Assembly: GCA_963666425.2 (NCBI GenBank)
Contig: OY762825.2
Coordinates: forward strand, 960,001-1,024,000
Direction: 5' to 3'
Source of the DNA: Bacillota bacterium
GTDB taxonomy: Bacteria; Bacillota; JAAYKD01
Length of the DNA stretch: 64,000 nt
Each line of letters opens with the position of its first letter. Within the stretch, counting starts at the first letter, position 1. Shown in pieces: positions 8,399-26,446 of the stretch. The translations under genes were made by a program, and so were the position numbers. Under the pieces are notes generated by a model. That model saw nothing but the letters and a program-made list of their open reading frames with translations, did not search any database and had not been told where the DNA came from.

Positions 8399-8427
8399 TG
8401 GACAAATCCGGATAGGGATGTTATACT
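8399..8427 (+). promoter_or_regulatory. SigA-type promoter for the riboswitch/permease operon
   Basis: TGGACA-17 bp-TATACT with extended TG, about 15 bp upstream of the aptamer. Confidence 0.7.
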
Positions 8428-8442
8428 CAGGAACATAAAAAA

Positions 8443-8610
8443 GTTGGTAGAGGCGCGGAGAGAAAAGTAACCGAAATGAGAAGGCATTCAATGACTTCGG
8501 TGAAAGGGTAAACCGCCGAAACTGTTTTCCGGCAGGAAAGCAGGTTGGGCTGCATGGAAATACCATGTAGACTCCTGAAAATACGTTGTATTTTCAGAGG
8601 AGCTATCGAT
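8443..8610 (+). promoter_or_regulatory. Lysine riboswitch (L-box) aptamer, predicted OFF switch
   Basis: GGTAGAGGCGC...AGTA...GAAAGG...CGCCGAA...TTGGG...AATA...ACT...GCTATC hallmarks; P1 GTTGGTAG/CTATCGAT. Confidence 0.88.
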
Positions 8611-8642
8611 TGTTAACTTTTTTCCGCACCGAAATGGGCATT

Positions 8643-8676
8643 AAAAAGTTGCATCGATACAGATGCAACTTTTTTT
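8643..8676 (+). terminator. Riboswitch-controlled intrinsic terminator
   Basis: AAAAAGTTGCATC-gataca-GATGCAACTTTTTTT; the 5' arm is complementary to 8604-8622 (antiterminator). Confidence 0.85.
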
Positions 8677-8747
8677 AATACCCATTTTTCTTTAGGCTCG
8701 GTTAATCTATCGGCCGATGCCTTGCGACTGCGAAAGGAGTTTTTCTC

Positions 8748-10130
8748 ATGAATGAAAACACACACAACCTAGCTGAACTGCAATCGGAAAAAACCGAATT
8801 CAAAAGAGAAGTCGGTCTCTTCGGCGGCATCAGCGTGCTGGGCGGCATCATGGTCGGTTCCGGCATCTTCTACCTTGGTTCCTATGTTCTGATGCGTTCC
8901 GGCATGAGCATGGGGCTTTCCCTGCTTGTCTGGGTTATTGGCGGTTTAGTTACTCTGCTCAGCGGTATCTGCTATGCCGAACTCGGCGCCATGATGCCAA
9001 AAGCAGGCGGCGGTTATGTCTACCTGCGGGAAGCGTTCGGTGAACGTATTGCCTTTATGAGCGGAATCAACGGCTTCGTGCTGGGCAGCTCCGGCTCCAT
9101 TGCTGCTTTGGCTATCGCCTTCCCCAATCTACTGGGCAGCTTTTTCAGCATCAGTCCCGTCGCCGGCAAAGCCATTGCCATTGGCCTGATCGTGCTGCTC
9201 TCTGCCATCAATATCCTGGGCATTAAATTTGGTTCTTTAGTCCAGAATATCTTCCTGATTGCCAAACTGATTCCGATTGCCGTCATCTTAATCTGCGGCT
9301 TACTGCTGGGTCAACAGACGCCTAATTTAAGCCTCATCCCTGCTTCTCAGCCTTCCTTTGTGCAGCTCTGCAGCATGATCGCCTTTGCCGTGGTGGCAAC
9401 CCTGTGGGCTTATGAAGGTTGGACCAATCTGAATACGATCAGCGAAGAAATCAAGAATCCTCACCGCAATTTGCCGCTCGCCATTATCTTAGCCATCACG
9501 AGCGTCACGGTTCTCTACACACTCTTCAATTTCGCTATTTATCGTGTGCTGCCGCTCGACGCGATTACCACCTTGTTCAACAGTAAAAGTTACTTTTTAG
9601 GCACCGAAGTTGCCGGCACGCTCTTCGGCAGTACCGGTCGGCTATTGGTCAGCTTGACCATGGCCATCTCGGTTTTCGGCGCTCTCAACGGCTGCGTCAT
9701 GGTTTTCCCCCGCACCTATTATGCCATGGCCAAAGACGGTCTGTTTTTCTCCTCCTGCGGTAAACTGCATGAAACTTATAAAACGCCGGTCAATGCGCAA
9801 ATCGCTTCTGCTCTGATTTCTATCGTTTTAGTCCTCTCGCGCAATCTGGATCAACTGACCTCCCTCGTTGTCTTCAGTGCTTTTATCTTTAATATTCTGA
9901 TTTTCTATTCCGTGATCGTTCTGCGTAAAAAATATCCCAACTTGAACCGTCCCTACCGTGTCTGGCTCTATCCGATCAGCGTCATCCTGACCATGGTGAT
10001 TATGGTTGGTTTGATGGTCAACACCTTCATCGAAGACCCGACCACCTCCCTGATTGGCCTGGTTGTACCGGCGGCCGGCTTTGTCATCTATGAAATCATT
10101 CGCCGCAGAAAAACCACTGTGGCAGCATAG
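8748..10130 (+). CDS. APC-superfamily (LAT-like) amino acid permease
   Basis: MVGSGIF, YAELGAMMPKAGGGYVYL, WAYEGW, EEIKNP motifs; about 12 TMs. Confidence 0.9.
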   Translation: MNENTHNLAELQSEKTEFKREVGLFGGISVLGGIMVGSGIFYLGSYVLMRSGMSMGLSLLVWVIGGLVTLLSGICYAELGAMMPKAGGGYVYLREAFGERIAFMSGINGFVLGSSGSIAALAIAFPNLLGSFFSISPVAGKAIAIGLIVLLSAINILGIKFGSLVQNIFLIAKLIPIAVILICGLLLGQQTPNLSLIPASQPSFVQLCSMIAFAVVATLWAYEGWTNLNTISEEIKNPHRNLPLAIILAITSVTVLYTLFNFAIYRVLPLDAITTLFNSKSYFLGTEVAGTLFGSTGRLLVSLTMAISVFGALNGCVMVFPRTYYAMAKDGLFFSSCGKLHETYKTPVNAQIASALISIVLVLSRNLDQLTSLVVFSAFIFNILIFYSVIVLRKKYPNLNRPYRVWLYPISVILTMVIMVGLMVNTFIEDPTTSLIGLVVPAAGFVIYEIIRRRKTTVAA

Positions 10131-10142
10131 GAGAATAAAAAA

Positions 10143-11741
10143 ATGACTACCATCCTCTATCATGGCAACATCTACGTCCGGCAAGGTCAATTTGCAGAAG
10201 CGCTGCTGATTGAAGATAATATGATCCGCCGGATTGGCAGCAATGAAGAAATTCTGCAAGAAGCTCCGGCTGAAGCGGAACGCATCGATTTAGCGGGACG
10301 CACGGTCCTGCCCGGCTTCAATGATTCCCATATGCATCTGCAAATGGTCGGCCGCGATATGCAGACAGTCAACCTCTACGGCGCTACTTCCATTCAGGAA
10401 GTCATTCGCCGCGGCCGCGCGTTCCTCAGCGAACATCCGGTTCCCGCAGGCAGCGTCGTCAACGGCAGCGGTTGGAATCAGGACTATTTCAGTGATGAAG
10501 TGCGTCTGCTCAACCGCCACGATCTCGATCAGATTTCAACAGAACACATCCTTATTTTCAGCCGTGCCTGTGGTCATGTTCTGACAGCCAATACACTGGC
10601 GATCGAAACCGCCAGTGTAACCGCCGCCACGCCGCAGCCAGCCGGTGGCCATTTTGATACCGATGCGGATGGCAGCCCGAACGGTATTTTCCGGGAAAGC
10701 GCCAACGCCCTGATCTACCGGCTGCAGCCGGCTGAAGATCTTCCCGCCATTCTGCACAGCCTCAATCTGGCGATGGATTATGCGGCCTCGCAAGGCATCA
10801 CTTCCGTGCAGACCATGGATGTCAACAGCAACAATACCGAAATTATGCTGGCAGCGTATACAGAAGTGCTGGCGGAACGCCCGACTCTGCGCGTTTATCA
10901 TCAATGCAACATCACCACATTGGACGCACTGCACGCTTTTGCCGCCAAAGGTTATCTCACCGGCAAGGTGAATGGACTGCAGATGATTGGACCAATCAAA
11001 CTGTTCATGGATGGCTCTCTGGGGGCACGCACCGCCCTGATGCGGCAGCCTTATGCCGATGATCCCACCACAAGTGGCATCCAATGTGTCGATCAGACGG
11101 AGCTGAATCAACTGGTTGCGGAGGCGAATCAACTTGGTTTTCAGGTTACTGCCCACGCCATCGGTGACGGTGCCATCGAGCTGATCCTGAATGCCTATGA
11201 ATCCGTTCAGCAAGTGGGCCAAAATCCCCTGCGCAACGGCGTCGTCCATTGTCAGATCACCGACCCGGCGCAGCTGCAGCGTTTCCTCAGTTATGATATC
11301 CTGGCTCAGGTTCAGCCGATTTTCCTGCATTATGATCTGCACATCGTCAGAGAAAGAGTGGGAAGTACGCTAGCCGACACATCCTACGCCTTTGGCAGCA
11401 TGCAGCAAATGGGCATCCATGTCAGCTTTGGTACCGACTCGCCGGTGGAAAATATGAATCCGTTCCATAATATCTACTGTGCCGTAACGCGCCGCGATCT
11501 CAACGGCAGTGCGCCTTATAACCCAAGCGAAGCCTATACCGTTGCGGACGCGGTCGACGCTTACACCCTCGGCAGCGCCTATGTCAGCTTTGAGGAAAAC
11601 AAAAAAGGCCGTTTGCAGCCCGGTTTCCTTGCCGATCTGGTCGTGCTGAGTGATGATATTTTCAGCATCGCACCAACTGAGATCAAGGATATCACCGCTG
11701 TGATGACCATAGTAGACGGTAGAATCGTTTATAGAGTTTAG
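10143..11741 (+). CDS. YtcJ-like amidohydrolase (amidohydrolase 3 family)
   Basis: PGFNDSHMH, KLFMDGSLGARTA, HAIGD, VHCQ, GTDSPVE. Confidence 0.88.
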   Translation: MTTILYHGNIYVRQGQFAEALLIEDNMIRRIGSNEEILQEAPAEAERIDLAGRTVLPGFNDSHMHLQMVGRDMQTVNLYGATSIQEVIRRGRAFLSEHPVPAGSVVNGSGWNQDYFSDEVRLLNRHDLDQISTEHILIFSRACGHVLTANTLAIETASVTAATPQPAGGHFDTDADGSPNGIFRESANALIYRLQPAEDLPAILHSLNLAMDYAASQGITSVQTMDVNSNNTEIMLAAYTEVLAERPTLRVYHQCNITTLDALHAFAAKGYLTGKVNGLQMIGPIKLFMDGSLGARTALMRQPYADDPTTSGIQCVDQTELNQLVAEANQLGFQVTAHAIGDGAIELILNAYESVQQVGQNPLRNGVVHCQITDPAQLQRFLSYDILAQVQPIFLHYDLHIVRERVGSTLADTSYAFGSMQQMGIHVSFGTDSPVENMNPFHNIYCAVTRRDLNGSAPYNPSEAYTVADAVDAYTLGSAYVSFEENKKGRLQPGFLADLVVLSDDIFSIAPTEIKDITAVMTIVDGRIVYRV

Positions 11742-12196: not shown

Positions 12197-12225
12197 TTGA
12201 CTTCCCTTTTTATTTCCTATATACT
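12197..12225 (+). promoter_or_regulatory. SigA-type promoter
   Basis: TTGACT-17 bp-TATACT upstream of the 12301 CDS. Confidence 0.6.
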
Positions 12226-12300: not shown

Positions 12301-13011
12301 GTGATGAACGCCATGCGTAAATTCAACTGGTGGCAATTTTCATTTTTTCTCTCTCTTATTTTAAACATCCCAATGCTGCTGGGTTTCATTTCTGTCTTCT
12401 TTTTCTTTCAGTATTATGGAATTGAGACCGCGGTCCCCTTTGCCGGAGTTCGTTTACACGAAATTGGCTTGGCTCCGTCAATGCTGACATTACTAGTCTG
12501 TTATCCTTCATTTCCTGCAAAGTTGGATACCAAACCTATGATCAAATGGCTTTATGGGGCTTTAACAATTCCTTGCTTGATTTATTATTCAAAAAAAATG
12601 AGCCTTCCTACCGAAGACTTCCGCTTCAGTATTCTTTTCTTTGCTGCGGTTTTAACCCTAATTGGCTTTCTTTTACGGAAACGCATCTGGAAGTTTCGCT
12701 ACATAACCTATGTGCTTGGTTTTACGCTTTTTACAAGTATATTTGTAATCATAAACACATCCTATCGAACTCAATTTAATATTTGTGATTATCTCGGCGA
12801 AAGCTATGCAGTGACTTACGCGCTGGGTGTAAATGCCTACCTCGTTCAATGTGAGATAGAGCCAAATCTTGATTCGCAAGATGCTGAATCAGTTATAAAG
12901 CTCTATCAAAACAAATTTCTGGTCGTGAATTATTTCGAAAATGACATCTTGAAGGATAATTACACCAGATTTTCACGGGTTGTCATCATGCCAAGCACAG
13001 AAAATCCGTAA
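12301..13011 (+). CDS. Hypothetical AT-rich multi-pass membrane protein
   Basis: GGAGGAGGTG RBS, about 5 hydrophobic segments, no recognisable motif; start may be ATG 12313. Confidence 0.7.
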   Translation: MMNAMRKFNWWQFSFFLSLILNIPMLLGFISVFFFFQYYGIETAVPFAGVRLHEIGLAPSMLTLLVCYPSFPAKLDTKPMIKWLYGALTIPCLIYYSKKMSLPTEDFRFSILFFAAVLTLIGFLLRKRIWKFRYITYVLGFTLFTSIFVIINTSYRTQFNICDYLGESYAVTYALGVNAYLVQCEIEPNLDSQDAESVIKLYQNKFLVVNYFENDILKDNYTRFSRVVIMPSTENP

Positions 13012-14440: not shown

Positions 14441-15094
14441 TTATTCGCCGAACTCTTTCAAATCGTCTGCTACCCGAAAATCCGCTTCCGTTTTTTGCCG
14501 CAGCTCGGCAAGCGACACTCCTTTGCGAATCTCCCGCAGCAGCAATCCTGTCGCTGTTACTTCCAGCACCGCCAGCTCCGTAATGATCAGATTCACTTTG
14601 TTCTTCGCCGTCAATGGCAAACGACAGCGCTTGAGAATTTTAGCTGCGTCGCCTTTGGCTGTATGAGTCGTCACCACGATCACTTGTTTAGCCCCCGCGA
14701 CAAGGTCCATTGCCCCACCCATACCCGGAACTAATTTGCCGGGGATGATATGGCTGGCCAAGGAACCGGCTTCATCCACTTCTAAAGCTCCTAGAATCGT
14801 TTTATCCAGATGCCCGCCGCGGATGATGGCAAATGAGGTGGCACTGTCGAAAAAGCTGCCATGATCTCGCAGCGTTACCGGAAGTCCGCCGGCATTGGTG
14901 ATATGAGCATTCTTCGTCTCGCCGGTTGCGGCTCGGTCCATCCCGATGATGCCGTTTTCCGACTGCAGGATCACATTAAAGGCTGCCGGGATATAATCCG
15001 CGACCAAAGTCGGCAAACCGATACCCAGATTGACAACATCGCCGTCTTCGAGCTCTAGGGCAGCTCGACGGGCAATTACTTCTTTCGCGTCCAT
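14441..15094 (-). CDS. atoA: Butyrate/acetate:acetoacetate CoA-transferase subunit B
   Basis: VNLGIGLP, QSENG catalytic Glu, PGMGGAMDL. Confidence 0.9.
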   Translation of the reverse strand: MDAKEVIARRAALELEDGDVVNLGIGLPTLVADYIPAAFNVILQSENGIIGMDRAATGETKNAHITNAGGLPVTLRDHGSFFDSATSFAIIRGGHLDKTILGALEVDEAGSLASHIIPGKLVPGMGGAMDLVAGAKQVIVVTTHTAKGDAAKILKRCRLPLTAKNKVNLIITELAVLEVTATGLLLREIRKGVSLAELRQKTEADFRVADDLKEFGE

Positions 15095-15750
15095 CAGGCC
15101 ACCCCTTTCAGAATATAATCCACAAAAATACCGGAGGTCATAATATAATTGCGGTCCAATTCGCCAACTTCTACAATCGTCTCAGCTGTGGCAATCACCA
15201 CATCGCAAGCCATCGCCATCAGATGATTGAAATTCTTGGTCGTTCCTTCATAAAAGCAATTACCAGCCTGATCAATCACGGTCGCATGAATCAGGGCGAT
15301 ATCCCCGTGCAGCGGCAATTCCAGCAAGTAATCTTTGCCGTTGACCGAGATGATTTGTTTGCCCTGCTCGATTTCGGTGCCCAAACCGGTGGCAGTCAGC
15401 ACGCCGCCCAAGCCACTGCCGCCGCAGCGAATCCGTTCGGCCAACGTCCCTTGCGGCACCAGTTCCACTTCCAATTCGCCGGTGCTCATTTGCTGCCCGG
15501 TTTCCGGATTCATGCCAATATGCGAGACGATTAATTTCTTAACTCGTTTGGTAGCGATCAATTTGGAGATACCGATTCCCGGCATCGCGGTATCATTGGC
15601 AATGATCGTATAATCTTGCACATCCTTGGCAATCAGAGCATCCACCAACCGCTCAGAAGTGCCATTGCCAAGAAAACCGCCAATCATCACAGTCATGCCA
15701 TCGCGGAATAACTGCATGGCTGTACTGAGATCGATCAATTTATTCTTCAC
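15094..15750 (-). CDS. atoD: Butyrate/acetate:acetoacetate CoA-transferase subunit A
   Basis: DGMTVMIGGF, PQGTLAERIR, KNFN; GTG start at 15750 behind GAAGGTGA. Confidence 0.9.
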   Translation of the reverse strand: MKNKLIDLSTAMQLFRDGMTVMIGGFLGNGTSERLVDALIAKDVQDYTIIANDTAMPGIGISKLIATKRVKKLIVSHIGMNPETGQQMSTGELEVELVPQGTLAERIRCGGSGLGGVLTATGLGTEIEQGKQIISVNGKDYLLELPLHGDIALIHATVIDQAGNCFYEGTTKNFNHLMAMACDVVIATAETIVEVGELDRNYIMTSGIFVDYILKGVA

Positions 15751-15754
15751 GTCA

Positions 15755-16621
15755 TCACCTTCCCTGTTCCTGCTGTTCATACAGGAAGAATCCCGCTTTG
15801 CTTTTGCGTCCCAATTTTCCGGCCCGCACCATCTTACGCAAGTAAGGCTGCGGACGATATTTGCTGTCGCCGGTTTCCCGCTGCAGTACCTCCATAATGT
15901 CAAGCACTACATCCAGTCCGATTAAATCAGCCAAGGCCAAAGGGCCCATGGGATGATTGGCTCCCAGCTGCATGGCTGTGTCAATATCCGCTGCAGAAGC
16001 AATCCCTTCTGCCAGAATCCCGATCGCTTCGTTGATCATCGGAATCAGGATGCGGTTGACGACAAAGCCGGGCGCTTCCTCCACCAACACGGCTTGCTTC
16101 TCCAGTTTAGCGCAGAAGCCTCGAATCACCTGGATCGTTGCTTCGCTGGTTTGGCTGCCTTTGACGATTTCCACCAATTTCATCAGAGGAGCTGGATTGA
16201 AGAAGTGCATGCCGATCATCCGCTGCGGACACTGCACCGCGGCAGCCAGTTCGGTGATCGACAGTGAGGAAGTATTGCTGGCAAAGATCGTCTGCGTGCT
16301 GCAAACTAAATCGAGCTGACGAAAGAGCTCTTTTTTGACTGCTGCTTTCTCTACCACTGCTTCCAACACCAATTCACACGGAACAGCCTCTTCTATGGCA
16401 GTGGCTTGATGCAGATTGTTCTGCAGCGCACGTTTGGCATCCGCTGAAAGACGGCCTTTCTCCACCTGGCGGCTCAGGATTTTATCGATGTTGGCAAAAC
16501 TTCTCTCCACTGCCAGAGGATTGAGATCATAAAGATAAGTCGTAAAGCCTGCCGCCGCAAAACATTGCGCGATGCCGCTGCCCATCGTGCCGGCGCCAAT
16601 CACAAAAACACTCATTTTCAT
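15755..16621 (-). CDS. hbd: 3-hydroxybutyryl-CoA dehydrogenase
   Basis: GAGTMGSGIA, SNTSSLSI, GMHFFNP, NHPMGP. Confidence 0.92.
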   Translation of the reverse strand: MKMSVFVIGAGTMGSGIAQCFAAAGFTTYLYDLNPLAVERSFANIDKILSRQVEKGRLSADAKRALQNNLHQATAIEEAVPCELVLEAVVEKAAVKKELFRQLDLVCSTQTIFASNTSSLSITELAAAVQCPQRMIGMHFFNPAPLMKLVEIVKGSQTSEATIQVIRGFCAKLEKQAVLVEEAPGFVVNRILIPMINEAIGILAEGIASAADIDTAMQLGANHPMGPLALADLIGLDVVLDIMEVLQRETGDSKYRPQPYLRKMVRAGKLGRKSKAGFFLYEQQEQGR

Positions 16622-16636
16622 CTTCTCCCCGTTTTA

Positions 16637-17407
16637 TTATTTCTGCCTGGCTCTGCCGCGCTGTAAAAAAGCGGTCATCCGCTCCTGTCGGTCCGCTGCT
16701 GCAAAGCAACGCTGAAATGCGCTGGCTTCCCGCTGACAGTCTGCCGCCAGCAAAGCTGTCTGCTGCGCCATCAACAGTTGTTTGGCTTCTCTGACCGCAA
16801 CGCGGCTGCATTGACCGAACCGCTGCAGTGTTCGCTCCAGTAAAGCTTCCAAATCTGCCGGTTCAGCCAGATATTCCACTAAGCCAATCCGATAAGCTTC
16901 CTCACCTTGAATGGTTTCACCGCTGAACAACAAACGTTTGGCTTGCCCTAAGCCAACCAAACGAACCAAACGAAAGCTGCCGCCAAAAGCGGGCGTGATG
17001 CCGAGTCCGGTTTCCGGTTGGCCAAAAACGGCTCGGGTGGAGGCGATACGCAAGTCGCAGGCCATCGCCAATTCCATGCCGCCGCCCAGGGCGTAGCCTT
17101 GCACCAGCGCAATGCTGGGGATGCTCAGCTGTTCTAATTGAGCAAAGACCCGATTGCCGTTTTGTGAAAATGCGTAAGCTTGTTCCGGTGTGAGATCCTG
17201 CATTTCGCTGATATCAGCACCGGCCACAAAGGCCTTTTCCTCGGCACCGCGTAAAACCAGACAACTGAGCGACTGAATGGCTGCGAGTGTGGTGAAAGCT
17301 TCTGATAATTCCTGTAATACTTCACTGTTCAGCGCATTCAGCGCCTGCGGCCGCTGGATCGTCAGGATGGCAACATTTTCCTTGATTTCCAAGCAAGTGT
17401 TATTCAT
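16637..17407 (-). CDS. crt: Enoyl-CoA hydratase (crotonase)
   Basis: AFVAGADI, ALGGGMELAMACD, GQPETGLG. Confidence 0.88.
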   Translation of the reverse strand: MNNTCLEIKENVAILTIQRPQALNALNSEVLQELSEAFTTLAAIQSLSCLVLRGAEEKAFVAGADISEMQDLTPEQAYAFSQNGNRVFAQLEQLSIPSIALVQGYALGGGMELAMACDLRIASTRAVFGQPETGLGITPAFGGSFRLVRLVGLGQAKRLLFSGETIQGEEAYRIGLVEYLAEPADLEALLERTLQRFGQCSRVAVREAKQLLMAQQTALLAADCQREASAFQRCFAAADRQERMTAFLQRGRARQK

Positions 17408-17409
17408 TT

Positions 17410-18609
17410 TTAATTCTCCCTGCAGCGCTCGTCACGTTCGACAATCAGAGCCTCTCCCATTCCGCCGCCGATACAAAGCGTGGCTAAACCATATCGCAGA
17501 CTGCGCTTTTTCATTTCATACAGCAAGCTAACCAAGATCCGGGCACCCGACGCGCCAATGGGATGTCCCAGGGCAATGGCGCCGCCGTTGACATTGACCT
17601 TGTCCGAATTCCAGCCTAATTCCTGCATGACAGCCAGTGATTGGGCGGCAAACGCTTCGTTCGCCTCAATCAAATCCAATTGATCCATTGTCATTTCTGC
17701 TTTGACCAAAGCTTGCTGCACCGCTGGAATCGGTCCCAATCCCATAAAGGCCGGATCTACCCCGGCAGAGCCGCTGGCCACAATCCGTGCCAGTGGTTTT
17801 AAGTGATTTTCCAGCAAAAAACGTTCCCCGCAGACAATCACCGCGGCTGCTCCGTCGTTGATACCGGAAGCGTTACCGGCGGTGACAGTACCCTCTTTGC
17901 TGAAAGCAGGCCGTAAGCGCTGCAATCCGGCCAGGTTGCTGCCGAAACGAGGATGCTCATCCTGTTGAAAAATCGTCACGTTTTTTTTGCGGTCCACCAA
18001 TTCGATCGGCACAATTTCATCAACAAAGCGTCCGCTTTGGATGGCAGCCTCCGCTTTTAGCTGTGAGGCCAAGGCGAATTGATCTTGGGCTTCCCTTGTG
18101 ATCTGATAGCGCTGGGCGACATTTTCCGCAGTCAAACCCATATGATATTGCAAAAAGACGTCCGTCAGACCATCGTAAACCATCAGATCCGTTGCCTCGG
18201 CATTGCCCATACGGGCACCATAGCGCATGCTCTGCAGCGCATAGGGAGCAAGATCCATATTCTCCATGCCCCCGGCGACCACACAATCGGCTTCTCCGGC
18301 TAAAATGCTGCGCTGCGCGTAAACAACCGCTGTTAAACCGGAACCGCAGACTTTATTGATGGTCATGGCGGGGATCGTATAGGGAATTCCGGCTTTGACT
18401 GCTGCCTGGCGGGCAGGGTTTTGACCCAAGCCAGCCTGTAGGACATTACCCATGACCACTTCGCTAACCTGATTGCTCTGCAAAGCTGCTCGCTCTAGCG
18501 CCGCCGCGATCACTTTAGCAGCCAATTCTACCGCTGGTGTGTCTTTCAGACTGCCGTTCATCGTGCCGATAGCGGTACGGCAGGCACTGACGATGTAGAT
18601 TTTCTCCAT
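17410..18609 (-). CDS. thlA: Acetyl-CoA acetyltransferase (thiolase)
   Basis: [27 protein letters not shown]; start MEKIYI. Confidence 0.93.
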
Positions 18610-18704
18610 TGTTCCCTCTCCTTTGTTTTCTTCGCCGGATTTTTCTAAAGCGGATCCGGTTTCCGCTTGCACTCGCTAAAAAGCTCGCACCGCAAGCAGC
18701 CCTG

Positions 18705-19502
18705 CTAAGTTCGCCGCAACGTCTGCCGGCGAATCATTTCTTTGGCAATAAACGTCGCCACATCATCGGCGTATTTACCGGCACCAAATCCGGCGTCATA
18801 ACCCAATTCTTTGGCCAACTCACCGGTGATACGCGCACCGCCGCAAATCATCAGCAGCTGCTCCCGCACTCCTTCCGCCTCACTCAATTCAATCAGTTCG
18901 GTTAAGTTTCTGATATGAACCTCTTTCTGCGTCACGGTCTGCGAGACCAAAAGCACATCCGCCGCCACTTGCAGCGCCTTTTGCAGCAGCTCTTCATTGG
19001 CTACCTGGCTGCCGAGATTATAGGTTTCAAACATCTCATAACGTTCCAGACCGTAATGACCGGCAAAGCCTTTGCGGTTGATAATCGCGTCAATCCCCAC
19101 CGTATGCGCATCACTGCCGGTGGAAGCGCCGACCACAACGATCTTGCGGCCCAATTCGCTGCGAATCAAAGCATCCGTTGCTGCCAGCGACATGGCTTGC
19201 TCAGCCATCGCCGCAACCTGAAGCTTGCTGTAATCCACACTGTGCAGCAGAGAGCCATAGAGAATATAGAATGAAAAATGACGATCCAAACGCTGATGAT
19301 GAACCACGGAAGCGTTCGACAAACCCATTTGAGCGGCCAACGCCAAAGCGGCCGCCACACCCTTTTCATCGTCGGCAACCGGCAGACTAAAGCTCAGCTG
19401 CACTTTGCCGTCGTTCATCGTATCACCGTAGGGTTTCAGGTGCTGCAAGTCCAAGGCAGTCTCGGCAGCAGAACTCTGCTGTTTATACAGGCTTCCGCTC
19501 AT
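18705..19502 (-). CDS. kamE: Lysine 5,6-aminomutase beta (B12-binding) subunit
   Basis: KPYGDTMNDGKVQLSF; DAHTVG (DxHxxG); KGFAGHYGLE. Confidence 0.93.
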   Translation of the reverse strand: MSGSLYKQQSSAAETALDLQHLKPYGDTMNDGKVQLSFSLPVADDEKGVAAALALAAQMGLSNASVVHHQRLDRHFSFYILYGSLLHSVDYSKLQVAAMAEQAMSLAATDALIRSELGRKIVVVGASTGSDAHTVGIDAIINRKGFAGHYGLERYEMFETYNLGSQVANEELLQKALQVAADVLLVSQTVTQKEVHIRNLTELIELSEAEGVREQLLMICGGARITGELAKELGYDAGFGAGKYADDVATFIAKEMIRRQTLRRT

Positions 19503-21061
19503 CGCTCCATCCCCTCTCGCTGCATCGCTTCGGCAAACGGATTGAAGTAAACATATTCTTTGACCACCACACCCTCCAGACCCTTACCACCTGCTTTACT
19601 GCGGCGAATGTTGGCGAAAATGCCTTTTTCCAGTGCGGCAAAAAGTTGGATACGGTCGATTTCCCGCAATAAATCACAAGCTTTTTGCAGTACTTCTGCG
19701 GCGCGTGTCTCGACGATACCGCCGGAACGGAAGCTGATTTCATCCCCTAAATTCTGCATGGTACGAAAGACATACTGGGCATTGGCAATGGAAAGAGCGC
19801 GATCGGACATCAAAGGCGTATGAATGGCTTCAGTGAGCATACCGAGCAGATGGATCTTCTGCCCGGTCAGGATCGTTACCATATTAAACAGGGTATCCTG
19901 GACCTGGCCTTGGAAAATATCACCGGTCATAAACTTCGTGGGAGGCATATACTTCAGCGGTGCCTGCGGGAAGATTTCCCGCGCCATTTGGGCCTGCGCC
20001 AGCTCCAGGACAAAACCATTGGTCACATCGGGTGAGATTTCAAAAGCGTGGCCTAAGCCCATCTGTTCTGCAGGTAGCCCCGCCTGCAGGGCCAATTGTT
20101 CATTTAGAAACTGGGAAGCCAATACCGTATGCGCTTCTTCCACCGCATCGGCTGTCGTCAGATAATTGTCTTCTCCGGTATTAATGATCACACCGGCAAA
20201 GGCATTGATCCGGCGCGAAAAAGCCTGATCAATCAAAGTCCGCTGCATATTGATATCACGGAAGAGGATCCCGTAAAGCGCGTCGTTGAGCATCACATCC
20301 AAACGCTCCAGAGCGCCCATGGCGGCAATTTCCGGCATACAAAGCCCGGAGCAATAATTACAAAGACGAATATAGCGTCCGGTTTCCTCACCGACTCTAT
20401 CCAAGGCTGCCCGCATCAGCCGGAAGTTTTCCTGGGTGGCATAAGTGCCGCCAAAACCCTCCGTTGTGGCGCCGTAAGGCACATAATCCAACAAACTTTG
20501 CCCGGTGGTGCGAATCACGGCAATCACATCGGCTCCTTGTTTCGCTGCCGCTGTTGCCTGCGTGATGTCTTCATAGATATTGCCGGTTGCCACAATCAAA
20601 TAGAGCAAGGGGCCTTCTTTGTCGCCATGTTGTGCCAGAAAATCCTGCCGCACTTGCCGATTGGCTGTAATCCGCTGCAGCGCGGCTGACAAAAAGGGAG
20701 CCAAAGCCCGGCGCTGTGCTGCTCGATCCTGCCGCGGTATCCGGCTGAGGTCGAGCGAATCGGCCGCGATCGCTTCGACGATCTGCTGTGGGGTCATGCC
20801 AGATTGAATAACGGCATTGGCAATGGCATCGGCAGCACCGCAAGCCAGTAGATTTTTACTGACCAGGTGATCCACCAAAATATTCGGCAAGGGTACCTGT
20901 GCTGCTGTAATGCCATCAACGCCGAGTAAGCGGCAGATTGCCCGTTCCACACTGACGGTAGTATGACAATCAATGAATTCTTGGGTATGCTGGGCAATGT
21001 TGGCTGCATAACAGCGTGCCTGCGCCACTAAATCACGGTTTAAATTTAATTTACTTTGCAT
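19499..21061 (-). CDS. kamD: Lysine 5,6-aminomutase alpha subunit
   Basis: IVATGNIYED, RTTGQSLLDYVPYG, NYCSGLCMPE, KYMPPTK. Confidence 0.95.
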   Translation of the reverse strand: MQSKLNLNRDLVAQARCYAANIAQHTQEFIDCHTTVSVERAICRLLGVDGITAAQVPLPNILVDHLVSKNLLACGAADAIANAVIQSGMTPQQIVEAIAADSLDLSRIPRQDRAAQRRALAPFLSAALQRITANRQVRQDFLAQHGDKEGPLLYLIVATGNIYEDITQATAAAKQGADVIAVIRTTGQSLLDYVPYGATTEGFGGTYATQENFRLMRAALDRVGEETGRYIRLCNYCSGLCMPEIAAMGALERLDVMLNDALYGILFRDINMQRTLIDQAFSRRINAFAGVIINTGEDNYLTTADAVEEAHTVLASQFLNEQLALQAGLPAEQMGLGHAFEISPDVTNGFVLELAQAQMAREIFPQAPLKYMPPTKFMTGDIFQGQVQDTLFNMVTILTGQKIHLLGMLTEAIHTPLMSDRALSIANAQYVFRTMQNLGDEISFRSGGIVETRAAEVLQKACDLLREIDRIQLFAALEKGIFANIRRSKAGGKGLEGVVVKEYVYFNPFAEAMQREGMER

Positions 21062-22338
21062 GAGGATGCCTTGCTTTCATGCTGATTGCGCAAATGGCGC
21101 GCCAAATTATCGGGTTCCAGAGAGAGTCCGATCCCCTGTTCCAATTGTGCGACTCCGCTGATGGCTGCCGCCTGTTCTTTGCGGCAGACCGGACAATGAC
21201 AGACATTTTCATAATGGCGCGGTTCGGTATAAGCAGCAATCACACCTTCGAAATTGCGCAGAATCACCCGATCCGGCGTCTCACTGATCAGATAATTCGG
21301 CATGACCGGAATCTTGCCGCCGCCGCCGGGTGCATCGATTACATAGGTAGGAACGGCAAAGCCGGAGGTGTGTCCACGCAATGCTTCAATAATCTCAATG
21401 CCTTTGCTGACCGGAGTCCGGAAGTGTTCCAAGCCGAAAGAAAGATCGCATTGATAAAGATAATAAGGCCGCACTCTGATTTTCACCAATTCCTGCACCA
21501 GGTTTTTCATGACAAAGACGCAATCATTGACCCCGGCCAGTAAAACGCTTTGATTGCCCAGGGGAATCCCGACATCCGCCAGGCGGCTGCAGGCAGCCGT
21601 GGATTCGGCGGTAATTTCATTGGCATGATTAAAATGCGTGTTCAGCCAAATCGGATGGTATTTTTTCAGCATCTCCACCAATTCTGGCGTAATACGCTGG
21701 GGACAGACCACCGGCATGCGCGAACCGATGCGAATGATTTCCACATGCGGAATCGCCCGCAGTGCGGCAATGATCGTTTCCAGACGATCGTCGCTCAGCG
21801 TCAGGGGATCACCGCCGGAGAGCAGCACATCCCGTATTTCGCTATGGGCAGCGATGTAAGCAATACCGCGCCGGATGCGATCCATCGCCACAGCACTGTC
21901 ATGCTGACCGGCAAAACGTCGCCGCGTGCAATGCCGGCAATACATGGAGCACTGATCGGTTACCAAAAAAAGCACTCTGTCCGGATAACGATGGGTCACA
22001 CCGGGCACAGGAGCATCCTCATCCTCATGCAGAGGATCCATTAAGTCGGCAGGTGCCCGCTGCAATTCCTGCGCGGTGGGAACTGCCTGACGGCGAATCG
22101 GACACCAGGGGTCATTCGGATCGATCAGGCTGAGATAATACGGTGTAATCGCCATGCGCAAATTGCCCAGGCACTGCGCGATGCCCAGCTCTTCTTCCGG
22201 TGTCAGGGAGAGATAAGTTTTCAGCTGCGCCAGTGTTTCAATTCGATTTTCAATTTGCCAATGCCAATCCTGCCATTGCTGATCCGAAACATGCGGAAAT
22301 AACTCTGTTCTTCTGGATACGCTGGACAAAATGATCAC
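21046..22338 (-). CDS. kamA: Lysine 2,3-aminomutase (radical SAM/PLP)
   Basis: THRYPDR, CSMYCRHCTRRR, LSGGDPL, DAPGGGGKIP; start may be TTG 22329. Confidence 0.95.
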   Translation of the reverse strand: MIILSSVSRRTELFPHVSDQQWQDWHWQIENRIETLAQLKTYLSLTPEEELGIAQCLGNLRMAITPYYLSLIDPNDPWCPIRRQAVPTAQELQRAPADLMDPLHEDEDAPVPGVTHRYPDRVLFLVTDQCSMYCRHCTRRRFAGQHDSAVAMDRIRRGIAYIAAHSEIRDVLLSGGDPLTLSDDRLETIIAALRAIPHVEIIRIGSRMPVVCPQRITPELVEMLKKYHPIWLNTHFNHANEITAESTAACSRLADVGIPLGNQSVLLAGVNDCVFVMKNLVQELVKIRVRPYYLYQCDLSFGLEHFRTPVSKGIEIIEALRGHTSGFAVPTYVIDAPGGGGKIPVMPNYLISETPDRVILRNFEGVIAAYTEPRHYENVCHCPVCRKEQAAAISGVAQLEQGIGLSLEPDNLARHLRNQHESKASSCKVN

Positions 22339-22381
22339 CCTTTCTTATTTCAACGACTGTTTTGTCTGAATGAACCAGAAT

Positions 22382-23419
22382 CTAGACGTATTTTTCTTCA
22401 AAATAAGCCCGCAGCGCTGCATTTTCCCGTAATTCAGTTAACGTTACTTCGGCATGCCCTTTGGTGTAGCCATTGCCGATGATCATAGTCACATCCTTAC
22501 CGACGCCTTCCGCACCCAGGGCTGCTTTGGTGAAGCTGGTCGCCATTGAGAAAAAATAGACAATGCCATTGTCGCGCACCGGCAGGATACAGGCCATTTC
22601 CGTATTCGGAATATTGACGCAGCTGATGGAAATATCCACTTCTTTGCCCTGGTTTGCCGCCAAGGTTTTCTCCAGAACATCCAATGGCTGCGTAGCGCTG
22701 GAAACGATGACCTGATGCGCCAAATTCAGTGCTTTCAGCTTGCTGATATCGCTTTCTTTACGCACCATGGCGATGACATTACCGGTCGGTCCCGCACACT
22801 TCATGGCCTCATACAAGCAAAGCATACCGGATTTGCCACCCGCTCCCAGAATCAGAACACTGTCACCGGGTTTGACCAGTTTGGCGGTTTGTGCGGGAGC
22901 CCCGGCAATATCGAGCGCAGCGAGAGCCAGGTTTTCACTCATGTCGTCCGGCAATTTTGCATAGATACCGCTCTCAAAGAGAATGGCCTGGGCTTTCACA
23001 TCCACACGATCGATTGCTTGATGCACCGCGATAATTTCTTCGATGCAAAGCGGTGTCAGCGAGAGCGAAACCAGGGTCGCAATCTTATCACCGATTTTCA
23101 GTTCGGTATCCCGCAGAGCAGGACCGATGGCGGCAACATGCCCGATCAGCATGCCGCCGGACCCGGTCACGGGGTTCTGCATCTTGCCTTTTTCGGCTAC
23201 GATTGCCATGATTTGCGCCCGTATTTGTGCTTCATCGCCATTGACCGCTCGTTTGATCTGATTAAAGGAAGCGGAATCGATGTTCAAAGCCGTGACATTG
23301 ATCAGAATTTCATTATCATAAAGCACTGACATATCATTGTTGATCCGCGTGGCAGCCTGCGGCAGCACGCCCATCGGTTCCAGCACGCGGTGCGTGCCAT
23401 ATTTGTTGCCTAAATTCAT
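22382..23419 (-). CDS. kdd: L-erythro-3,5-diaminohexanoate dehydrogenase
   Basis: KYGTHRV, LNIDSASF, NPVTGSGGM, GAGGKSG, GNGY. Confidence 0.92.
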   Translation of the reverse strand: MNLGNKYGTHRVLEPMGVLPQAATRINNDMSVLYDNEILINVTALNIDSASFNQIKRAVNGDEAQIRAQIMAIVAEKGKMQNPVTGSGGMLIGHVAAIGPALRDTELKIGDKIATLVSLSLTPLCIEEIIAVHQAIDRVDVKAQAILFESGIYAKLPDDMSENLALAALDIAGAPAQTAKLVKPGDSVLILGAGGKSGMLCLYEAMKCAGPTGNVIAMVRKESDISKLKALNLAHQVIVSSATQPLDVLEKTLAANQGKEVDISISCVNIPNTEMACILPVRDNGIVYFFSMATSFTKAALGAEGVGKDVTMIIGNGYTKGHAEVTLTELRENAALRAYFEEKYV

Positions 23420-23446
23420 GATAAAAACAACTCCTATCCCGGTTTT

Positions 23447-24277
23447 TTACTCTGCGCTGGGCAGTCCCAAAATGCTTCTGGCTTCCGCCGGTGTGGCCAC
23501 CTGACGTCCGAATTCATTGGCCAGGCGAACCACTTTTTCAACTAATTCACCATTGCTCTTGGCTTTGATTCCTTTGGCAAGATAGATCGTATCCTCAAAA
23601 CCCACTCTGACATGACCGCCCAGGATGATCGCCATGGCGGCGAGAGGAAAAGCCGCTCTCCCGATTCCTGTCACCGTGTAACTGGCCCCGGGCGGCAGAC
23701 TCTCCGCCAGGAATAAAAGATCCCGCGGTTCTCCGCTGATGCCGCCGTTGACACCCAAAACCAAATTGAAATGCAGCGGTCCGCTCAAATAACCTTGTTT
23801 TGTTAAGCGCAGCGCCATATCGATCATACCCTTATCGAACACTTCGATTTCTGGTTTCACCCGGTGCTCCTGCATATGAAGCGCAAATTCCTTAATCGTA
23901 TTTTCTGTATTGACAAAAATGTCATCGCCGCCAAAATTACAAGTACCGCAATCCAGCGAAGCCATGATCGGATTCAGGCTCAACGGCTGCAGGCGTTCGG
24001 TATTACTCATACCGGTTGCACCGCCGGTTGAGGGCTGCACGATCAAAGTGCTGGGACATTGCCGATAAATTTCCTCGATACAGGCCCGAAAGCGCTCCGC
24101 GCTTTGGGTCGGTCGGCCGTCATCTTCTCTGACATGCAGATGAATGATGCTGGCTCCAGCCTGCCAGGCTTGCTTGGCTTCCGCTCCGATTTCCGCGATC
24201 GTATAAGGGACAGCTGGATTCTGCTGCTTCGTCACTTCCGCACCGCAGATGGAAGCAGTGATGATCAATTTTTCCAT
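23447..24277 (-). CDS. kce: 3-keto-5-aminohexanoate cleavage enzyme
   Basis: MEKLIIT, IHLHVR, STGGA, GTCNFG, RVGFED. Confidence 0.92.
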   Translation of the reverse strand: MEKLIITASICGAEVTKQQNPAVPYTIAEIGAEAKQAWQAGASIIHLHVREDDGRPTQSAERFRACIEEIYRQCPSTLIVQPSTGGATGMSNTERLQPLSLNPIMASLDCGTCNFGGDDIFVNTENTIKEFALHMQEHRVKPEIEVFDKGMIDMALRLTKQGYLSGPLHFNLVLGVNGGISGEPRDLLFLAESLPPGASYTVTGIGRAAFPLAAMAIILGGHVRVGFEDTIYLAKGIKAKSNGELVEKVVRLANEFGRQVATPAEARSILGLPSAE

Positions 24278-24675
24278 CACGATTCCCTGCTTTCTTTGTT
24301 TCTCTGTTTGCCTTTTGGTACAACGCAGGTACCGACTGCCTGACAAACCAGCACAGGCTGCGGCAGAACGTCACAGGCGGAATCATTCAGATCGGATCGC
24401 GGCATAATCACCTTATGAGCGAAAAATTCCATCTGCCGCGAGGTGTTGCCGACGCGGATGATCCGCCCCGTTGCTTCAATATAATCTCCGGCGTAAACGG
24501 GACTGAAAAACTCCACCTTCTCGTAAGCGCGAAATAAACCTTCATCTCCATCACTGCGAATCAAAAGTTCCGTAGCGACATCCCCGAACAACTGCAGCAT
24601 TTTTGCCCCGTCCACCAGATTGCCGCCATAATGGGCATCCTGGCTGCCCATGCGGACACGAATCATTACAGGCAT
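24277..24675 (-). CDS. kal: 3-aminobutyryl-CoA ammonia-lyase (hotdog fold)
   Basis: [29 protein letters not shown]. Confidence 0.93.
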
Positions 24676-24716: not shown

Positions 24717-24763
24717 AAAAAAAGCGCTAGGGTTATCAAATACAAGATTTGATCTCCAGCGCT
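24717..24763 (-). terminator. Intrinsic terminator overlapping the 3' end of the lysine aptamer
   Basis: Minus strand AGCGCTGG-AG-ATCAAAT-cttgt-ATTTGAT-AACC-CTAGCGCT followed by a T-tract. Confidence 0.8.
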
Positions 24764-24922
24764 CCATGGTTATTTTACCATGACAGAACCGTTGCTCTCG
24801 GCAACGATTCCAAAGCAGGCAGCAAAACGTGCTGTCAGCTTTTCGGCAGGTGTTACATTCGGCCGGTTCATCCAGGACGTTCCCTATCCCCGGTTTACCT
24901 TACAACCTGCTCCTCTATCCCT
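24755..24922 (-). promoter_or_regulatory. Lysine riboswitch aptamer, predicted ON switch
   Basis: Minus strand ATAGAGGAGCAGG...GGTA...GAA...CCTGCCGAAA...TTGG...CTGTCATGG...CCATGGAGCGCT. Confidence 0.85.
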
Positions 24923-24937
24923 ATTCACTTTATTTAC

Positions 24938-24994: not shown

Positions 24995-26446
24995 TTACTT
25001 TTCCAATAAGTCTAAAATCCCAGCTTCCAATCCCAGCAAACGGCAAATCCGGCGCGCTTCCTGCGGAATTGTCTCCTCACGATCTACCGGTAAAAGCGTA
25101 TAATCCATGCTGCGGTTCAGATAAAGTACCGGATCTTCCCCTGACTGCATGGCTCGCTTAAACTCCAAGGCATCCAGCTTCTGCAGTCCCGTTACTTGAT
25201 AATGGGCATTGGCAAAGCTTGCCACGCCGTCATAATGGGTTGTCAGCACCGTCATACCGGGTTGCTGGTTAAAATAAGCTGTCATTGCCTGCAGCAGCAG
25301 TGCACCTTCTTTGGGATTAGTCCCTCTGACAAATTCATCCAGAGCCAGGAAGGTGAATTGTCCTTGATGGTCGCGAAGAAAGTGATTCAACCTGCTGATT
25401 TCTGCGCCGAAACTGCTCAATCCCAGTTCGGCCGATTGCTGATCTTCGCCCAGATAAGCCAAGTGGCTGAATAACGGTAAAACAGCCGTTTTGGCATAGA
25501 TGAAAAATCCCAGCTGCCAGAGCGTGAGATTCAGCATCAGGCTGCGCAGTAGAATGCTTTTTCCTCCCATATTGGCTCCCGTGATCACGGTGGCACCCGG
25601 CTGTAAACGAATGCTAACCGGAGTGAAGCGGCGCTGCCAACTCTGCAGAATTGCCGCAACTTTAGGATGGATCATCTCCTGCAAAATAACAACCGGTTCC
25701 GGTGCCAATGCCGGCCTTGTCAGATGCTCAGTGATCGCTAAGCGTGCCTTGGCAAGATCCAATTCCAGGCAGCCCAACGAACGGGTTGCTTGCTGCAGTT
25801 CCGTTAAGTAGGGCAACAAATGTTCTGTGATGTTTTGTTTTACCAGCATTTCTTCCACTGCTTCGGCTGCCGCCCATCTGCTCCGTTCGGCTAACAGATC
25901 CGCCTGTTCCACTGGCGAAGCGAGGCGCAGTAGTTGCTCACAGCGCAGTTTTTGCTGCCGTATGGTTGCCAAAGCCGGATAGGAAAATTCATCCAGATAA
26001 AAAGCTCTTAAGCCATGTTGCTGCGGATCCAACCAAACGAGCGCTGCCGCCAGTGAAGGCAGCTGAATTTGGTGCAAACACAATCGATTCAAGAGAGCGG
26101 CACCCTGCGACTGTAAATCCTGATACTGCAGCAAGAAAACTTTCAGCTGAAACAGCGCTATTTCATCCAAAATCTCATTTCTGCTCAAAGCAGTGAGGAT
26201 ACCCTCAATTTCCTGGACAGAATGATAGAAATTTCGCAGTTTAACGAAGAAAAGAGGATATTTTGCTTGCGCCTGCATGAGAATTTCCAGATTATCCAAA
26301 GCCGCCTGTTGCTCTTTTTCCTCTCCCGGCAAGTAAAAAACCAGATTTTTTAAAGCACGCCGACCATAGGGGGAACACACTTGCAGTTGATCCAATACGA
26401 AACTTAAATCCTGCGGATAGCAGGATGTGACTTGGCTAAATTGCAT
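24995..26446 (-). CDS. kamC: MutS-like ATPase subunit of the lysine 5,6-aminomutase reactivase
   Basis: TGANMGGKS, LSSFGAE, LDEFVRGTNP, TTHY; lacks MutS DNA-binding domains; kam context. Confidence 0.85.
   Translation of the reverse strand: MQFSQVTSCYPQDLSFVLDQLQVCSPYGRRALKNLVFYLPGEEKEQQAALDNLEILMQAQAKYPLFFVKLRNFYHSVQEIEGILTALSRNEILDEIALFQLKVFLLQYQDLQSQGAALLNRLCLHQIQLPSLAAALVWLDPQQHGLRAFYLDEFSYPALATIRQQKLRCEQLLRLASPVEQADLLAERSRWAAAEAVEEMLVKQNITEHLLPYLTELQQATRSLGCLELDLAKARLAITEHLTRPALAPEPVVILQEMIHPKVAAILQSWQRRFTPVSIRLQPGATVITGANMGGKSILLRSLMLNLTLWQLGFFIYAKTAVLPLFSHLAYLGEDQQSAELGLSSFGAEISRLNHFLRDHQGQFTFLALDEFVRGTNPKEGALLLQAMTAYFNQQPGMTVLTTHYDGVASFANAHYQVTGLQKLDALEFKRAMQSGEDPVLYLNRSMDYTLLPVDREETIPQEARRICRLLGLEAGILDLLEK

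Follow-up and report, generated by a model that had tools for sequence, protein, structure and literature searches.

The lysine riboswitch, or L-box, is described as a regulator of genes for lysine synthesis and lysine transport and, in a few species, of lysine catabolism, where it precedes kal–kce (PMC5584792; PMC3766115; here and below, published work is cited from those parts of each text that were available). The amidohydrolases listed in its regulon are the last genes of dap operons (PMC5584792; PMC3766115). Here, we describe an L-box followed by two genes, which encode a permease of the APC superfamily and a YtcJ-like metal amidohydrolase. The locus lies in a 64,000-nucleotide stretch of DNA from a Bacillota bacterium (assembly GCA_963666425.2, contig OY762825.2, positions 960,001 to 1,024,000), called the window below, and coordinates refer to this stretch unless another genome or locus is named. 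With moderate confidence, we read it as a self-contained, lysine-repressed salvage cassette, by which a blocked lysine would be imported and hydrolysed to lysine.

The uptake genes known under OFF-type L-boxes are, like the cassette, controlled from upstream by this riboswitch, and include LysP/GabP (COG0833), YvsH (COG0531), LysW/NhaC, and the ABC transporter LysXY; YvsH is also an APC protein, as is the permease of the window (PMC5584792). However, the known L-box transporters are carriers alone, without the coupled hydrolase of the cassette. The cassette's logic of L-box, carrier, and amide hydrolase is found in Clostridioides difficile, in which a fourth L-box precedes, in what appears to be one operon, yfcC, for a putative basic amino-acid antiporter, and an M20D amidohydrolase of unknown function (PMC11477304). 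The proteins themselves are non-homologous to those of the cassette, with a DcuC-type carrier instead of an APC permease and an M20 fold instead of an amidohydrolase TIM barrel.

The vast majority of the PF07969 superfamily, to which the enzyme of the window belongs, is uncharacterised (bioRxiv 10.64898/2026.04.05.716592). Among its YtcJ-like members, the formamide deformylase NfdA and the metallo bile salt hydrolases free the amine from an N-acyl amide (bioRxiv 10.64898/2026.04.05.716592). Like the predicted active site of our enzyme, those of NfdA and the bile salt hydrolase BwBSH1 contain two metals bridged by a carboxylated lysine, as well as an auxiliary histidine, which is H196 in BwBSH1 and would correspond to H145, invariant among the aligned relatives, in the window's enzyme (bioRxiv 10.64898/2026.04.05.716592). 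In contrast, BwBSH1 is a secreted protein of 101 kDa with an extra C-terminal domain, the substrates of NfdA and BwBSH1 differ, and no link to lysine or to a riboswitch is given for them in the available text.

The earlier note on this DNA had drawn the comparison with the formamide deformylase, which stands, but the epsilon-lysine acylases (ELAs) of Streptomyces are more relevant (PMC10699109). SmELA and SgELA are classed among the YtcJ-like amidohydrolases. For SgELA, an activity of 11.1 U/mg on N-epsilon-acetyl-lysine is given, with none on N-alpha-acetyl-lysine or the other N-alpha-acyl amino acids tested, and its metal ligands are H76, H78, H330, H365, and D431 (PMC10699109). By their published descriptions, SmELA, SgELA, ScELA, and SamELA (EC 3.5.1.17) are of the same class and of similar length as the enzyme of the window, and the ligand spacing in SgELA is like that of H63, H65, H338, H369, and D432 in the latter. 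These ELAs free L-lysine from N-epsilon-acyl-lysine and leave N-alpha-acetyl-lysine uncut (PMC10699109); the accessions are WP_004948872 for SmELA, WP_069631407 for SgELA, and CAB61667 for ScELA (PMC10699109; PMC11511702). The known ELAs are more than 75-80% identical to each other; PMC11511702 puts the identity of all of them above 80% and describes them as being without a carboxylated lysine. They all come from Streptomyces, and the accessible parts of these papers mention no riboswitch, permease partner, or physiological role for them.

A YtcJ-like enzyme under an L-box is not mentioned in the available portions of PMC5584792, PMC11477304, and PMC3766115, and no published description of such an enzyme or of this cassette was found in a search that did not extend to subscription journals. 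The L-box, the APC permease, and the YtcJ-like amidohydrolase are each of a known kind, while their fixed combination as a hydrolytic lysine-salvage cassette is undescribed in the literature searched.

The Leader and the Gene Pair

The aptamer occupies positions 8440..8613 of the forward strand (cmscan match to Rfam RF00168, model positions 1-182/182; 85.3 bits against a gathering score of 30, E = 6.6e-21) and was found again in a scan of the whole genome. Upstream of it, a sigma-70-like promoter site at 8399..8427 (+; TGGACA-17 nt-TATACT, with TG before the -10 hexamer) would place the start of the transcript a few bases 5' of the aptamer; this site is a consensus match only, at 10 of 12 positions, and six such sites occur in the region against 5.0 expected. 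On the other side of the aptamer, an intrinsic terminator spans 8635..8689 (+), with the core stem AAAAAGUUGCAUC / GAUGCAACUUUUU and a U-run, an outer helix, and a second U-run. Its hairpin folds at -23.0 kcal/mol (z -7.9), and none of 200 shuffles was as good. An antiterminator helix (8604..8659, +) pairs 8604-8622, that is the 3' strand of aptamer stem P1 and the bases downstream of it, with 8643-8659 in the 5' arm of the terminator; folded without the 3' arm of the hairpin, it reaches -17.6 kcal/mol (z -3.1), and 0 of 200 shuffles were as stable.

The terminator is located wholly 3' of the aptamer, which corresponds to an OFF platform, and the antiterminator draws on the 3' strand of P1, as in classical OFF switches. 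Lysine-stabilised P1 would exclude the antiterminator and allow the terminator to form, so that the leader at 8440-8689 is predicted to be a lysine-responsive OFF switch on transcription, with P1 coupled to the terminator and antiterminator.

The first gene encodes an APC-superfamily permease of 460 aa that resembles the L-type amino-acid transporters (LAT; 8748..10130, +; assigned by Pfam, NCBIfam, and PDB sequence comparison). The second follows after a gap of 12 nt (10131-10142), with GGAG 8 nt before its ATG, and encodes the YtcJ-like metal amidohydrolase (Amidohydro_3) of 532 aa (10143..11741, +; assigned by Pfam), a predicted lysine-releasing hydrolase. The earlier note had described exactly such a two-gene unit, with this gap, under an OFF switch; the riboswitch match, the terminator, and the antiterminator confirm this description, and every detail of it that could be checked is correct. 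The structure of the leader is far beyond chance and lies where that note had placed it.

Conservation and Spread of the Unit

A scan of one genome per species revealed at least 579 stretches that encode a relative of the amidohydrolase with the signature motifs of its branch, and the best 80 of these (47-62% identity) were kept; they are not a random sample. In 59 of the 80 loci, the gene immediately before the amidohydrolase encodes an ortholog of the permease (54-79% identity), which is complete in 55 of them and truncated at a contig end in 4. No other neighbour gene of the pair is conserved across the 80 loci, and no dap or lys gene is among them.

The earlier note had named the co-occurrence of an L-box in orthologous operons as the test of its proposal, the absence of which would speak against it. 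An L-box was found upstream on the same strand in 67 of the 74 judgeable loci, the other six (L008, L016, L036, L041, L059, L063) having too little upstream DNA to be judged. The Rfam model detected it in 45 of the 55 loci scanned (18/19, 9/16, and 18/20 in three scans); an nhmmer profile built from the first L-box matches then gave 22 positives among the remaining 25 (E <= 9.9e-24), of which the other 3 have no upstream DNA. A hairpin and U-run wholly downstream of the aptamer are present in 66 of 68 orthologous leaders, as counted by a simple home-made heuristic script. The seven judgeable loci in which no L-box was found upstream (L019, L022, L025, L031, L032, L067, L073) are scattered on the FastTree phylogeny of the enzyme, where at least five losses are needed. 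Their neighbours include a diacylglycerol-kinase-like gene, a glycerate kinase, a sigma factor, and SSB, as well as another APC permease in L022 and an M20 peptidase in L073, and no alternative regulator was identified among these neighbours.

In 12 loci, the L-box directly precedes the amidohydrolase: 11 of them are without a permease (L009, L024, L043, L046, L051, L053, L061, L065, L068, L075, L079), and the twelfth, L017, has a permease remnant only. The amidohydrolase is therefore itself a riboswitch-regulated unit, which still has an L-box at the loci that lack the permease. In the Sutterella-labelled locus L056, the order is reversed, with the amidohydrolase before the permease, and each gene has its own L-box (357-533 and 2418-2598). 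A second locus with this label, L078, has L-boxes at 1-135 and 2140-2238, the latter cut by the contig end; no permease is seen there, and its layout agrees with that of L056 as far as the short contig reaches.

In L046, L053, and L075, which belong to one Oscillospiraceae clade, two L-boxes face apart, one toward the YtcJ-like gene and the other toward a DcuC/YfcC-type carrier (1540-1722, -, and 2033-2196, +, in L046; 3406-3584, -, and 3765-3928, +, in L053; 1174-1352, -, and 3737-3901, +, in L075). The carrier in L053 is followed, as far as the DNA reaches, by an M20 peptidase, a unit of the same kind as yfcC–M20D of C. difficile. Such a layout resembles a small "lysine salvage island" in which the two hydrolases are unrelated to each other.

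The bias in the choice of the 80 loci is partly covered by a sample of 151 genomes, drawn evenly from the phylum of the window. The permease (E <= 1e-90) occurs in 6 of them, and all six have the order L-box, permease, amidohydrolase. In three of the six, the permease is 50-51% and the amidohydrolase 37-41% identical to those of the window; since the three-part unit is kept in such distant versions, it is older and wider than the clade of the 80 loci.

These arrangements bear on an alternative in which the permease is an ordinary L-lysine importer, and the enzyme acts on lysine conjugates that are internal or otherwise acquired, such as N-epsilon-acyl-lysines from the turnover of acylated proteins, or X-Lys and N-alpha-acyl-Lys peptides; the two proteins would have a common regulator and separate substrates. 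The L-box of the enzyme's own in the 11 loci without a permease, as well as the separate L-boxes of the two genes in L056, are in line with this view, and plain lysine transporters under an L-box are the known norm (PMC5584792). However, the two genes are adjacent in 59 of the 80 loci, and all six genomes with the permease in the evenly drawn sample pair it with the enzyme, even where the enzyme is only 37-41% identical. Genes that function independently are seldom coupled so tightly, which argues against this alternative, as does the presence, in the window's own genome, of another amino-acid transporter, of the ABC type, under L-box control. We consider it unlikely, though it is the strongest of the alternatives.

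The enzyme tree nests rows from Sutterellaceae (Pseudomonadota), Hallella (Bacteroidota), Sphaerochaeta, Cetobacterium, and Erysipelotrichaceae inside the Clostridia rows. Those of Sutterellaceae, Hallella, and Erysipelotrichaceae carry the L-box, and the cassette has therefore crossed phyla together with its riboswitch. The single Sphaerochaeta row (L073) keeps the two genes together but lacks the L-box, and in Cetobacterium (L041) the contig stops short of any leader. The labels of metagenome-assembled genomes may be imperfect; mis-binning is nevertheless an unlikely cause of the spread, because 22 rows are labelled Sutterellaceae and several of them have lineage-specific neighbour genes in common. 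The terminator hairpin (core GTTGCATCGAT...ATGCAAC) is recognisably alike in the leaders of Clostridia, Sutterellaceae, and Hallella, and, as read by eye, about 48 of the 68 orthologous leaders, including those of Sutterellaceae and Hallella, share the terminator core GCATCG. This likeness indicates that the whole riboswitch, with its expression platform, was transferred, and not the aptamer alone.

In the Sphaerochaeta locus, an M20 peptidase gene (998-2428, +) stands directly upstream of the permease–amidohydrolase pair. The window itself comes from a small lineage of class rank in GTDB, whose order and class each count 10 genomes.

The Permease

Both Pfam models AA_permease_2 (206.1 bits, cut-off 27) and AA_permease (121.5 bits, cut-off 24.6) match the permease. 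Its best NCBIfam model is that of the LAT family, TIGR00911, with 224 bits against a cut-off of 701.8, and the second-best is the FrlA model NF008466, with 188.2 bits against an equivalog cut-off of 800. The model for basic amino acid/polyamine antiporters, to which YvsH presumably belongs, gives 112 bits only, compared with the 224 bits of LAT. The earlier note had placed the permease in the APC group that includes FrlA; by these scores, it is not a FrlA ortholog, and the best model, LAT, is missed as well. FrlA is an APC permease for an N-epsilon-substituted lysine, from which lysine is then freed inside the cell. The frl system of Escherichia coli relies for this on a kinase and a deglycase, without an amidohydrolase, and is controlled by the protein repressor FrlR, without a riboswitch.

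The nearest solved chains are those of xCT, BasC, y+LAT1/2, and b0,+AT (E 5e-64 to 1e-53). In the alignments with xCT and BasC, the permease keeps the LAT/BasC motifs GSGIF, in the first transmembrane segment (TM1), and AYEGW, in TM6, which in LAT-type carriers bind the substrate by its alpha-carboxylate and alpha-amino groups. These motifs favour a substrate with a free alpha-amino-acid head, and hence a lysine that is blocked on the side chain rather than at N-alpha. The permease is predicted to import either the substrate of the enzyme or lysine; the lysine-carrying transporters y+LAT1/2 and b0,+AT among its nearest solved relatives are in keeping with the second possibility, and so with the alternative of an ordinary lysine importer.

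Downstream of the cassette, an open reading frame of 236 aa (12301-13011, +) has a promoter-like site of its own at 12197-12225. It has no Pfam or NCBIfam match and is not a conserved neighbour of the cassette in the other loci.

The Amidohydrolase

The 532-aa enzyme matches Amidohydro_3 (PF07969) with 349.5 bits against 29.7, over profile positions 3-472 of 472. The NCBIfam models all stay far below their cut-offs, and no signal peptide is visible in the sequence. H63, H65, K286 (within the motif KLFxDGS), H338, H369, and D432, together with H145, are invariant in 118 aligned relatives, and the first six are also conserved in distant relatives and in paralogs. By analogy with BwBSH1, and not from a metal-bound structure, these residues match a two-metal centre (HxH, bridging carboxylated Lys, His, His, Asp), in which H145 would be the auxiliary histidine.

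The AlphaFold2 model of the enzyme has a pLDDT of 96.2 and a pTM of 0.92. Its closest solved relatives are the Pyrococcus structures 3IGH and 3ICJ (sequence E 1.7e-53 and 4.1e-49), which are archaeal metal-dependent hydrolases and which Foldseek also places near it (TM 0.76/0.83 and 0.73/0.83, 29% identity, probability 1.00). The structural neighbours of low similarity include the L-Lys/L-Arg carboxypeptidase Cc2672 (3MTW), a point in favour of an enzyme that acts on lysine conjugates beside an ordinary lysine importer. The look-alikes in the ESM Atlas are generic "amidohydrolase" clusters only, and the PF07969 branch of the enzyme is an orphan.

In such a family, the product might be something other than lysine, for example if the pair detoxified a lysine antimetabolite or used an unrelated amide as a nitrogen source when lysine is low. 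Members of PF07969 differ widely in their specificity, which for most of them is unknown (bioRxiv 10.64898/2026.04.05.716592), and no specificity residues that point to lysine were found in the enzyme. In contrast, every OFF-type L-box target described in the available texts makes or imports lysine (PMC5584792; PMC3766115), and the link to the riboswitch has been kept through many transfers between phyla, which speaks for a direct connection with lysine metabolism. A product other than lysine appears quite improbable.

Lysine Metabolism of the Host Genome

The window's own genome (3.2 Mb, 98.5% complete) contains exactly three L-boxes. One of them, outside the window (G000:C1:397006-397176, -, 95.8 bits), precedes an amino-acid ABC transporter (binding protein, permease, ATPase), and none of the three precedes lysine synthesis genes, though lysA is present (475 bits). 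The second L-box of the window (24749-24925, -; Rfam 75.2 bits) is followed by a complete lysine fermentation operon (14441-24674, -; kal, kce, kdd, kamA, kamD, kamE, thiolase, crotonase, hbd, atoD, atoA), and the reactivase gene kamC (24995-26446) lies upstream of it. Its terminator hairpin (-19.4 kcal/mol) starts 14 nt inside the aptamer, with the 5' arm overlapping the aptamer's 3' end, which to judge from the predicted fold is an ON-type layout. With an OFF layout on the cassette and an ON layout on the fermentation operon, this genome would use one ligand both to shut down salvage and to turn on fermentation.

The step from tetrahydrodipicolinate to diaminopimelate (DAP) was not identified in this genome with the models tried (DapL, DapH, DapD, Ddh): DapD had 0 matches and Ddh none, the DapL models gave nothing above the cut-off, and the best DapH match reached 59 bits against a cut-off of 231.75, on hexapeptide repeats only. 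The best aminotransferase candidate for this route is generic and adjoins panB. In 24 other genomes with the cassette, lysA was above the cut-off in 18, just below it in one (297.3 against 297.9), and weak in another (216 bits), and 4 genomes gave no match. The latter include an Anaerofilum hominis isolate and a complete chromosome of 2.0 Mb, and all four keep the L-box, the permease, and the enzyme.

These data bear on two readings that involve DAP. In the first, a DAP-containing peptidoglycan fragment or an N-acyl-DAP is imported, the enzyme frees meso- or LL-DAP, and LysA converts it to lysine. The gap in the DAP route of the host genome is compatible with such salvage, as is the top PDB match of the permease, the cystine carrier xCT. 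DAP resembles cystine in shape. This top match is a consensus-engineered protein, however, so that its rank says little about the substrate. The dap genes are commonly under L-boxes (PMC5584792), yet no dap or lys gene is conserved beside the pair in the 80 loci. Furthermore, in the four genomes without a lysA match, a product upstream of lysine would be useless, which argues that the product is lysine and not DAP. This makes DAP salvage very improbable.

In the second, the enzyme is a biosynthetic N-acyl-diaminopimelate deacylase, that is a non-orthologous substitute for DapE or for the Bacillus-type deacetylase. M20 amidohydrolases have this role in L-box operons of Thermotogae and Staphylococcaceae (PMC5584792). 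In contrast to what this would require, the partner gene of our enzyme is a permease gene and not a dap gene, and the 98.5% complete genome, with 0 DapD matches and no DapH above the cut-off, would make no N-acyl-DAP. Such a biosynthetic role is hardly credible and was rejected, because the acyl branches of DAP synthesis were not seen in this genome.

The host genome also has 48 Amidohydro_3 matches, among them three YtcJ-like genes of full length, and a tblastn search with an M20 peptidase gave more than 20 matches. This abundance of amide hydrolases suggests a lifestyle based on peptides and amino acids. The neighbours of the two strong YtcJ-like paralogs (M14 carboxypeptidase, GPI, PGM, FAD oxidase, nucleotidyltransferase) are uninformative on their substrates.

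Proposed Function of the Cassette

We propose that, when lysine is scarce, the empty aptamer would allow the antiterminator to form, and both genes would be transcribed. The LAT-like permease would then import a lysine derivative with a free alpha-amino-acid head, most likely of the N-epsilon-acyl-L-lysine class (acetyl-, formyl-, and other acyl-lysines or epsilon-isopeptides), to which about two thirds of the weight given to an imported, blocked lysine is assigned. In the cytoplasm, the two-metal amidohydrolase would split the amide and yield free L-lysine and an acid. When lysine is plentiful, the bound aptamer, with P1 locked, would lead to the terminator at 8635-8689, and transcription would stop before the permease gene. 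OFF control of the end-product type by lysine implies that lysine is the product.

Three independent lines of evidence point to a salvage unit that yields lysine. First, OFF control by lysine has survived many transfers, also in loci whose two genes have become separated. Second, a carrier goes closely together with a cytoplasmic hydrolase, and the pair has no further partner gene. Third, by analogy, the structural family of the enzyme has a precedent, in the ELAs, for the release of lysine from N-epsilon-acyl-lysine. The salvage of a blocked lysine had been proposed in the earlier note, and its regulatory and genomic half is borne out by the L-box in 67 of 74 loci and the gene pair in 59 of 80; its chemical half, namely that lysine is the product of the enzyme and which bond is cut, is what we infer.

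Several observations weigh against this reading. The permease falls under every NCBIfam cut-off and could carry plain lysine, and, with the enzyme alone under an L-box in 11 loci, the substrate need not arrive via this permease. With lysA in 18 of the 24 cassette genomes, the cassette is not tied to lysine auxotrophy. For the enzyme, 3IGH and 3ICJ are the only solved structures close to it, and, being uncharacterised proteins, they say nothing on the substrate. When the 117 positions conserved in the close clade were compared with three distant L-box-linked enzymes and three unlinked paralogs, only G168 and T413 separated linked from unlinked enzymes; this is no clear specificity signature and too little from which to derive a binding site. 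Finally, K286 is invariant in the enzyme of the window, whereas the carboxylated lysine is reportedly absent in the ELAs, a comparison of positions made by description. The invariant K286 may mean that the type of active site is different, and the enzyme would be at best a distant functional analogue of the ELAs.

Implications for the Lysine Regulon and for Gut Bacteria

If salvage of a blocked lysine is its function, the cassette would provide a testable role for a large orphan branch of PF07969, a relative of which, with the signature motifs, is encoded by at least 579 species-level genomes. The ELAs are wanted as biocatalysts for acyl-lysine surfactants, and those known so far are small in number, similar to one another, and difficult to express (PMC10699109; PMC11511702).

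More tentatively, the cassette and the units of some Oscillospiraceae, in which a back-to-back L-box is followed by a YfcC-type carrier and an M20 enzyme, may together represent an unrecognised, riboswitch-controlled class of systems that recover lysine acylated post-translationally or chemically, either acyl-lysines or protease-resistant epsilon-isopeptides. The YtcJ-like enzyme might then be the first epsilon-lysine acylase outside Streptomyces whose physiological role is known, and the whole unit, including its terminator-type riboswitch, would be mobile across at least three phyla, with the gene pair in five. In this respect, the cassette is a clean example of a riboswitch that travels with its operon across phyla.

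Many carriers of the cassette are gut anaerobes, including the lysine- and fructoselysine-fermenting Intestinimonas, and others are sediment bacteria. Intestinimonas butyriciproducens, Anaerofilum hominis, and Bittarella massiliensis are among the carriers that can be cultivated. Since acyl-lysines and isopeptides from the diet, host proteins, and cell walls are plausible in the gut, the cassette may bear on the lysine supply of amino-acid fermenters. If the proposed function holds, the regulon of the lysine riboswitch would cover, besides synthesis, transport, and fermentation, a route that salvages blocked lysine by hydrolysis.

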